Virus record (IMG/VR): IMGVR_UViG_2526164633_000039
Source of the DNA: a virus
Lineage: Duplodnaviria > Heunggongvirae > Uroviricota > Caudoviricetes
DNA: 22,209 bases
Reading direction: 5' to 3' (one strand)
Part shown: one piece after another, positions 20,603 through 22,209 of the stretch
Numbering within the stretch: the first letter of the stretch is position 1
Layout: every line of letters begins with the position of its first letter
Notes under the pieces: generated by a model
Databases searched by the model: none
The model's input: the letters and a program-made list of their open reading frames with translations, nothing else
What the model was told of the DNA's origin: nothing
Program-made: the position numbers and the translations under genes

Positions 20603-22209
20603 TAAGCGGCTCGTCAGAACCGTATTGATATTTACTGAGAGCTCAGATCAACTTTCCAGGGCAACAGATCGCGTACCCGGTTTGCCGGCCAGTCCTGGAT
20701 ATGTTCAATGACGTAGCGCAGCCACTTTTCTGGCTCCACATTGTTCAGACGGCATGTGCCGATCAGCGAGTACAACACCGCCGCATGTTCACCACCGCTG
20801 TCGGAACCCGCGAACATCCAGTTTTTCCGGCCTACGGCCACTCCCCGTAAGGCGTTCTCTGCGATGTTGTTGTCGATTTCCACCCAGCCATTACTGCAGT
20901 ACACGTTCAGTGCATCCCACTGTTTCAGCAGGTATGCGAACGTCTTTTGCCGTATCTGAGTGACGCGACAGTGTTTTCATCTGTTGCTGTATCCAGTCAT
21001 ACAGTGACTGCATCAGTGGCGCGGCTCTGGTTTTTCTTGCCGCCAGACGCTGTTCTGCTGAACAGCCCCGGACCTCTGCCTCGATGGCATACAGTTCACC
21101 GATACGCTGCAGGGCTTCCGGTGGTGATGTCGGGTGGGCGCTCTTGCATGCACATCGTGGATTTTTCTCCGGGCATGAGCCATACACGCGGCTTCCGTTA
21201 TTCTGCCGGATTCGTATAACGCCCGGTAACCACCGTAAGCATCGGCCTGAAGCACACCGCTGTAACCGGCCAGGTGATTTTGTGGATGGATACCTTTCCG
21301 GTCCGGACTGTACGCGAACCAGACCGCCGGGGGCATCTGTGAACCGGCGTTACGGTCATCACGGACGTAGACCCACAGCCGGGCTGTCCGGGTTTTACCG
21401 CTGCCCGGCTCCTGGACAGGGACGGGGATATCATCAGCATGGACTTTACCGGGCATCAGCACATACTGGCGCAGGACGTCATACTGCGGCTCCAGTAGTT
21501 CAGCAACGGCACCCAGTCCCAGCGCCCCCAGTGTGGCACGGCTCAGCTCCACACCCTGACGGCGGTATATCTCTGACTGGCGGTATAACGGCAGATGGTC
21601 TGCATATTTTCCGGTGACGACATGGGCCAGGAGCCCCGCTCCGGCATAACTGCGTGCAATGGGTTTTGAAGGCACCGGTGCCTGCACGATATGGTCGCAC
21701 CGGCAACAGGCCAGTTTCGGACGTTGTGTTTCGATAACCTTAAAGGCGCTGCTGATAAGCTCCAGTTGCTCTGACACATCACATCCCAGAGAACTGAGTT
21801 CACCACCACAGGCAGGACAGCATTCCTCTTCCGGCCGGATAACCCGGGTTTCACGGGGAAGTGAGGCCGGTAACGGTTTACGGGCTGAAGACTGGCGCAG
21901 GGCGGATGGCAGTACCGGGTCATATTGCTCACCCAGCGTTTCCGCCATTTCTTCCTGAAGTGCGCTGATTCGCTCCTGTGCTTCCTGTATCTGCCGTTCG
22001 GTTTTTGCACGAAGTTTTTCTGAGCTTTTACCGAACTGCATACGTTGCAGTTTCGCAACCAGCGCCTTCAGCCGGTTGATTTCGGAAGCATAAGCCGCCA
22101 CCCGCTGTGAGAGCAGGCGGTTGTATTCAGCCATCTGGCGTATGGTGTCCTGTTGCGTCTGCAACAGTGCCCGCAGGCGGGCGTTCTCATGAGCAAGTGA
22201 GGTGTCCAT
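20603..22209 (-). mobile_element. Second IS66-family copy, partial in window (right terminus plus tnpC region); degenerate
   Basis: Begins GTAAGCGGCTCGTCAGAACCGTATTGATATTTACTGAG, near-identical to the 11612 terminus. Same orientation as copy 1. Continues beyond the window end. Confidence 0.85.
20632..22209 (-). pseudogene. tnpC: IS66-family tnpC, frameshifted (split into three track ORFs: 20632..20904, 20891..21187, 21013..22209)
   Basis: Alignment by eye to copy 1 shows single-base insertions (for example CGTCTTTTGCC versus CGCTTTTGCC near 20940, and extra G's near 21120) breaking the frame. The N-terminus [17 protein letters not shown] is intact at the window edge. Confidence 0.8.

Follow-up and report, generated by a model that had tools for sequence, protein, structure and literature searches.

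The window, that is, the whole 22,209-nucleotide stretch of DNA analysed here, belongs to a lambdoid prophage of the Stx-phage-like kind, carried by an EPEC-like E. coli draft genome. The late region is of the standard type and comprises a DUF968 gene and RusA, a Q-like antiterminator (DUF1133/Phage_antitermQ), a DNA methyltransferase, three tRNA genes, an esterase-like gene, a holin and YdfR. IS66-family elements are found at two places, one within the DUF968 gene (copy 1) and one immediately after YdfR (copy 2). The main features are the following.

11612-14315, minus strand: copy 1, an IS679-family element that is complete (2704 bp, with tnpA, tnpB and tnpC intact) and splits the DUF968 gene.
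17977-19839, plus strand: esterase-like gene (sialate O-acetylesterase-like, DUF1737/SASA/DUF6645), 620 aa, of a kind found upstream of lysis cassettes.
19990-20205, plus strand: class II holin (P21 S-type), 71 aa (PF04971, E = 9e-33; same annotation in relatives).
20210-20554, plus strand: YdfR/DUF1327 gene, 114 aa, the usual gene between holin and endolysin (PF07041, E = 2.4e-45; YdfR family in relatives).
20555-20601, plus strand: YdfR-to-endolysin spacer, cut by the IS, as defined by comparison with uninterrupted relatives.
20602-22209, minus strand: copy 2, a partial IS66-family element (ISCro1-family isoform), defined by its alignment with copy 1 from the first base, its Pfam domains and its intact relatives.
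20602-20627, no strand: terminal inverted repeat of copy 2 (GTAAGCGGCTCGTCAGAACCGT...), the exact end of the element, with the same terminus as copy 1.

The three tRNA genes lie between the methyltransferase and the esterase genes (17239-17488) and were assigned by ARAGORN to Met(cat), Arg(tcg) and Arg(tct); the first of them is a tRNA-Ile in the RefSeq annotation of O111:H2 strain 12A. Such a layout is seen upstream of the stx genes in Stx phages. At the stx-equivalent position (17489-17976), the window holds about 490 bp of non-coding DNA, without a toxin gene. Downstream, the mechanical ORF of the holin starts at 19912 and is 97 aa long. A mosaic breakpoint is located at the end of the holin gene, at about 20193: upstream of it, the window is nearly identical to the prophage of strain 12A, while the YdfR module (~20193-20601) is 100% identical to the O104:H4 type and divergent from the 116-aa YdfR of 12A. 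At the other end of the window (1-1377, minus strand), a run of five T at 1005, six in 12A, fuses a DUF4224 ORF to the integrase gene. The fusion is 412 aa long as called on the contig and 458 aa as a mechanical ORF, and the two are separate, overlapping CDSs in 12A; the Rac integrase IntR, about 411 aa long, would favour the fused form. The early region also contains a 343-aa SIR2-family gene (8500-9531) and a hok/gef-type toxin gene (9846-10058), which may be defence or addiction cargo, unrelated to the IS finding.

Copy 1 is a typical IS66 element. It has the tnpA-tnpB-tnpC organisation (216, 115 and 523 aa, with HTH_Tnp_1, TnpB_IS66 and DDE_Tnp_IS66 domains), its termini are imperfect inverted repeats sharing GTAAGCG and AAACCGT at both ends, and it is bordered on each side by a perfect 8-bp target duplication, GTTGATCC (11604-11611 and 14316-14323). 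No differences within the element were found between copy 1 and the IS679-family copy of strain 12A. The insertion divides the DUF968 gene into 10872-11611 and 14316-14633. It was also detected in four other draft assemblies, including AAJX02, presumably E. coli B171. IS679 was reportedly first described, by Han and colleagues in 2001 (a study cited in PMC6778807), on plasmid pB171 of EPEC B171. None of the complete genomes searched has the copy 1 junction, indicating that this sublineage is absent from finished genomes.

By repeat finding and pairwise alignment, 20602-22209 aligns colinearly with 11612-13213 (about 96% identity), and a 1.6-kb match at this level is far above chance. Since the two copies align from 11612 and 20602 on, copy 2 starts at 20602. 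The sequence-only reading had rightly recognised an element here, but had placed its start at 20603, 48 bp after the 114-aa ORF; the first base is in fact 47 nt after the YdfR stop codon (20552-20554). Both copies open with the IS66-type terminus GTAAGCGG; that of copy 2, at 20602, is the IS66-type GTAAGCGGCTCG, begins with GTAAGCG like that of copy 1, and is the one end of the element that is visible. From this tnpC-proximal terminus, copy 2 covers tnpC up to its ATG at 22207-22209; tnpB, tnpA and the other end are located beyond the window and also beyond the source contig. LZ_Tnp_IS66, zf-IS66, DDE_Tnp_IS66 and DDE_Tnp_IS66_C domains were all detected, spread over three ORFs and colinear with the profile. 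By these TnpC domains and its GTAAGCG terminus, copy 2 is a member of the IS66 family.

Copy 2 had been described as a second copy of the same IS, which does not hold. It differs from copy 1 by 63 to 65 substitutions and six gaps (~96% identity; 63 substitutions also against the identical IS679 copy of 12A), and copy 1 itself aligns with the intact ISCro1-family allele without gaps but with 62 substitutions. In complete genomes, copy 2 is matched best, at 99.6% identity (1602 versus 1608 bp), by FDAARGOS_1059, DEC9B and O111:H2 strain 12A among others, and 140 records match it at 99% or more. Compared with the ISCro1-family allele, copy 2 displays a single substitution and six 1-bp insertions (one alignment counts four mismatches and six gaps). 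Thus, copy 1 is of the IS679 family and copy 2 is an ISCro1-family isoform.

The position of copy 2 in the lysis cassette was defined by comparison with uninterrupted relatives. Window positions 20150-20601 are 100% identical to many complete genomes. In O104:H4 2009EL-2071, whose left flank is 100% identical, the sequence reads ...ctgataaata-tcc-ATGaac, where the window reads ...ctgataaata-GTAAGCGG; similarly, ...ctgataaata followed by gtaagcgg in the window corresponds to uninterrupted ...ctgataaatatccATGaac at loci L001 and L027. The comparison with 2009EL-2071 places the IS terminus 3 nt upstream of the expected endolysin ATG. A lysozyme gene or its remnant follows YdfR by 51 nt in all ten contexts with an identical YdfR protein; this protein is listed in 3,856 blocks of the gene index, and the lysozyme is likely to be comparably widespread. 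In relatives, YdfR is followed by the Phage_lysozyme gene (177 aa), then by small ORFs, Rz and the terminase genes. The N-terminus of the lysozyme in these relatives is hydrophobic and Gly/Ala-rich (MNTKIKYGLSAAVLALIAAGAPAP) and probably acts, judging from its composition, as a signal-anchor-release or signal sequence.

No lysozyme ORF was found in 20205-22209, and the DUF1327/YdfR gene is the only one between the holin and the IS, as the sequence-only reading had noted when it reported that no endolysin was present there. Its suggestion that the lysis cassette is disrupted is also borne out, since the IS is interposed between YdfR and R, 3 nt before the position of the lysozyme ATG in relatives.

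The sequence that would follow copy 2 was sought in the source assembly. The window corresponds, with 100% identity, to positions 47898-70106 of the 70130-bp contig AIHB01000021.1 (assembly GCA_000250235.2); AIHB presumably corresponds to strain DEC12B. The contig was identified through an exact match to the DUF968 product truncated by copy 1. This draft contig stops 24 bp past the tnpC ATG of copy 2, inside the tnpB-tnpC spacer. Thus, the right side of copy 2 is missing from the public record and not just from the window. The rightward extension by which the earlier reading had hoped to find the other IS end and any R/Rz genes could be carried 24 bp beyond the window, as far as the contig end, and neither was reached there. 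The window ends at the tnpC start codon, and the contig break 24 bp further on is plausibly where sequence common to several IS66-family copies starts.

Searches in larger collections returned no other case of this insertion. The left junction, as an exact pattern, had no match in the GTDB representative genomes or in IMG/VR, nor did the right junction, as a flexible pattern, in IMG/VR. A junction query found the YdfR-IS join in none of 5,426 complete E. coli genomes, and exact-protein look-ups returned only the same contig or contigs broken at the IS. The YdfR-adjacent insertion site is therefore unique to this contig among the collections searched.

What lies beyond the IS depends on how the junction arose. 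IS66-family elements generate 8-bp target duplications (PMC6778807). If copy 2 results from a simple insertion, its predicted target duplication is GATAAATA (20594-20601). The far junction would then read ...GCGCTTAC-GATAAATA-TCC-ATGAAC, that is, the IS end, the duplication and then the lysozyme, and the sequence past the tnpA-side terminus would run GATAAATA-TCC-ATGAACACCAAAATC... Owing to the 8-bp duplication, a simple insertion would preserve the endolysin ORF and the 11 nt preceding it beyond the 2.7-kb IS, and we infer from this that an endolysin gene remaining there would be structurally intact.

Copy 2 is antisense to the late operon. In lambda, RNA polymerase modified by Q reads through terminators. 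Late transcription antiterminated by Q could thus still reach the endolysin gene, so that a lysis defect is not a safe inference. The sequence-only reading had called the prophage probably lysis-defective; this goes beyond the data, as the contig ends 24 bp past the window and a simple insertion would keep the endolysin ORF.

The main alternative is that the junction is the scar of an IS-associated deletion, which may have been adjacent to the element or have arisen by recombination of one ISCro1-type copy with another. The prophage would then be a lysis-less remnant that has lost its endolysin, Rz, terminase, head and tail genes. Strain 12A, the closest complete genome, has an intact element of the same isoform in this prophage too. 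It is inserted in the tail-fibre gene, at 27.7 kb downstream of YdfR, in the same relative orientation and with its tnpC end toward the lysis genes. Loss of this interval in 12A would yield the arrangement of the window, and IS66 copies are known to mediate large deletions by recombination (PMC6778807). However, the YdfR module of the window, from about 20193, is unlike that of 12A and 100% identical to the O104:H4 type, so that at least one further recombination would be needed. Moreover, exact IS junctions arise more commonly by simple insertion, of which copy 1 is an example within the window itself. A deletion is therefore possible but not the favoured origin of the junction, and we consider simple insertion about twice as likely. 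The deletion concerns the unseen right side only and is compatible with the tnpC insertions being artefacts.

As a result of these insertions, tnpC of copy 2 is divided as follows.

21013-22209, minus strand: tnpC piece 1, a 398-aa ORF of about 360 in-frame residues, including one extra codon, then about 38 out-of-frame residues.
20891-21187, minus strand: tnpC piece 2, a 98-aa ORF in the shifted frame (DDE_Tnp_IS66 profile 170-233).
20632-20904, minus strand: tnpC piece 3, a 90-aa ORF in the original frame (end of the DDE domain and IS66 C-terminal domain).
20943-21525, no strand: patch of 583 bp with all seven differences from the intact IS, namely six 1-bp insertions and the synonymous substitution at 21418.

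The base-by-base alignment of the two copies, proposed as a check along with the earlier claim that single-base insertions split tnpC into three ORFs, supports that claim for the deposited sequence: three ORFs of 398, 98 and 90 aa are present, and six extra bases were counted relative to copy 1 (20943 T, 21121 G, 21132 G, 21514 C, 21518 C and 21525 C). The insertions at 21514, 21518 and 21525 fall within 12 nt and add a net single codon, changing residues GRWTGAV into GALGLGAV. The frame is broken by the other three, those at 21132 and 21121 shifting it and that at 20943 restoring it. Across the three ORFs, the DDE_Tnp_IS66 profile is covered from 1-169, 170-233 and 246-283, followed by the C-terminal domain. 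The exact sequence of the 90-aa piece is widespread in other assemblies. Programmed frameshifting in tnpC was considered and rejected, intact 523-aa single-ORF alleles of identical sequence being the norm.

Several observations suggest that the insertions arose in the sequence record rather than in the element. When the six bases are deleted from copy 2, the 523-aa TnpC obtained has no differences from WP_000381365.1, the tnpC product in FDAARGOS_1059, which makes the substitution at 21418 synonymous. The flanks of the 583-bp patch, 20602-20942 (341 bp) and 21526-22209 (684 bp), are identical to intact copies; by our own arithmetic, the probability that seven uniformly placed events span 583 bp or less is about 0.01. 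Of the six insertions, five make a G or C run longer, and the remaining one, a T, stands one base before a run of four T. The frameshifted 342-aa product, as called on the contig, is found in this contig only in an index of 153 billion genes. Natural decay consists mostly of substitutions and is biased toward deletions. Six +1 insertions against one synonymous change are the reverse of this pattern and point to error.

The rest of the draft was also compared with its relatives. Outside the IS elements, the window differs from strain 12A by 11 substitutions (10 of them in one variable segment) and five homopolymer-length differences in about 17.6 kb. At the T-homopolymers at 10152, 15999 and 19954, this draft is the sole outlier against 9 to 12 other assemblies of the same prophage (at 10152, drafts with the copy 1 insertion were also compared), and these differences are probably sequencing errors. 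All three sites are outside called genes; further homopolymer differences from 12A are located at 4553 and 1005. In another draft with the copy 1 insertion, AIHD01000036.1 (locus L020, 13750-13861), four 1-bp indels were found in the last 110 bp of the contig. They cut the esterase gene to 157 aa, likely a contig-end artefact.

The six tnpC-breaking insertions would thus be errors of sequencing or assembly, all within a low-quality stretch of 583 bp close to where the draft contig ends, and copy 2 would in reality be an intact IS of the ISCro1-family isoform. From these sequence comparisons, artefacts are the most likely source of the insertions, about three times as likely as real pseudogenisation. 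The frameshifts had been taken for biological lesions of the transposase gene; we regard them instead as probable errors, given an allele that is otherwise identical, a 583-bp cluster, homopolymers at five of six sites, a private product and miscalls elsewhere in the draft.

A less likely reading is that the frameshifts are real and that copy 2 is a dead IS66-family copy, its transposase gene broken by six slippage insertions. The extra bases do stand in the deposited sequence, and split-tnpC copies of IS66 elements exist in finished genomes (BEN2908, and a frameshifted tnpC annotated beside H41). The indel density of copy 2 (6 in 1.6 kb) is about 13-fold the background elsewhere in the window (about 5 in 17.6 kb), so that errors must be assumed to have a special local cause, and the clean last 684 bp indicate that there is no simple decay of quality toward the contig end. 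The insertions are also all +1 and in short G/C runs, unlike the background miscalls, which affect long T runs and are of either sign. Nevertheless, real decay would have to account for six insertions with no deletions and a single synonymous substitution relative to a widespread intact allele, all clustered in 583 bp, and for a product absent from other assemblies, in a draft that has private homopolymer miscalls and whose relative has indels at a contig end. Real frameshifts are thus doubtful.

It is quite improbable that the insertions are real and that, in addition, the junction reflects deletion of the endolysin or its uncoupling from the holin, which would make this a domesticated, non-lysing prophage that has kept its P21-type holin. 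Were this true, it would, together with the other IS66 cases, suggest that IS66 elements repeatedly silence prophage lysis in pathogenic E. coli. Finally, an assembly chimera of two unrelated places in the genome, conceivable for an element at a contig end in a repeat-rich draft, can be practically dismissed, since such joins form inside shared sequence, whereas this one coincides with the outermost base of the IS terminal repeat and has unique DNA opposite, as in genuine insertions, and the match of its left flank to uninterrupted relatives holds up to the joined base itself.

Altogether, the comparisons show that a real ISCro1-family element abuts the lysis cassette, how its sequence differs from intact copies and where these differences cluster, and that the contig ends shortly beyond; the insertions in its tnpC are most likely draft errors, and the IS itself is probably intact and ordinary.

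Other IS66-family insertions were found in lysis cassettes of this kind. In strains H1-H25 (L001, 6179-8900), an element separates the esterase gene from the holin; others lie inside the holin at locus L012 (10181-12766), and inside the lysozyme gene in NCCP 13717 and BEN2908 (L002, 5171-7786, and L030, 4053-6657). A universal orientation bias relative to the late operon was considered and rejected: the elements of the window, 12A, H1, L012 and NCCP 13717 are antisense, but that of BEN2908 is sense. The prophage of 12A, the closest finished relative of that in the window (L026, NZ_CP077479.1, 3326000-3372000), has three different IS66-family elements, all antisense to the late operon: ISEc22 interrupts the large terminase gene, IS679 a tail gene and an ISCro1-type element the tail-fibre gene. 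It also has two IS2 copies, with IS2 accompanying the ISCro1-type element in the tail-fibre region. With these elements and the IS679 in the DUF968 gene of the window, the prophage lineage is already IS-ridden.

Lambdoid prophages crippled by IS are commonplace in pathogenic E. coli and the ISCro1-family isoform is widespread, so the insertion carries little biological weight. Its interest is rather one of caution: pseudogene and "defective prophage" calls made at draft contig ends can be artefacts, and the absent endolysin is a missing sequence record, not a demonstrated gene loss. It also raises the question of whether lysis is abolished when an IS lies 3 nt ahead of the endolysin gene, or whether transcription antiterminated by Q still gets through.

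All components of the locus are of already known kinds, namely IS66-family elements (IS679 and ISCro1-family) and a P21-type lysis cassette with YdfR. Copy 1 resembles IS679 in its three ORFs (tnpA, tnpB and tnpC), GTAAGCG termini and 8-bp duplication, whereas copy 2, at about 96% identity, differs from IS679 and is a related isoform. Copy 2 is like the ISCro1-family IS66-like elements (WP_000381365.1) over 1602 bp save for one synonymous change, with the same terminus and order of tnpC domains. It differs from them by six extra bases, which are probably errors, by the presence of only the tnpC half in the window, and by its YdfR-adjacent site, found in no complete genome searched. The other IS66 insertions in lysis cassettes are the same kind of event, but their exact sites differ from that of the window and they are independent; the BEN2908 copy, moreover, has the opposite relative orientation to copy 2. 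Compared with the P21-type lysis cassettes of lambdoid and Stx-like prophages (class II holin, YdfR, lysozyme, Rz), the window has the holin and YdfR in the usual order, likewise downstream of Q, the tRNAs and the esterase gene, and with the same spacing as in relatives up to the IS; it differs from them in that the IS starts 3 nt before the lysozyme start position and that the window contains neither the lysozyme nor the Rz gene.
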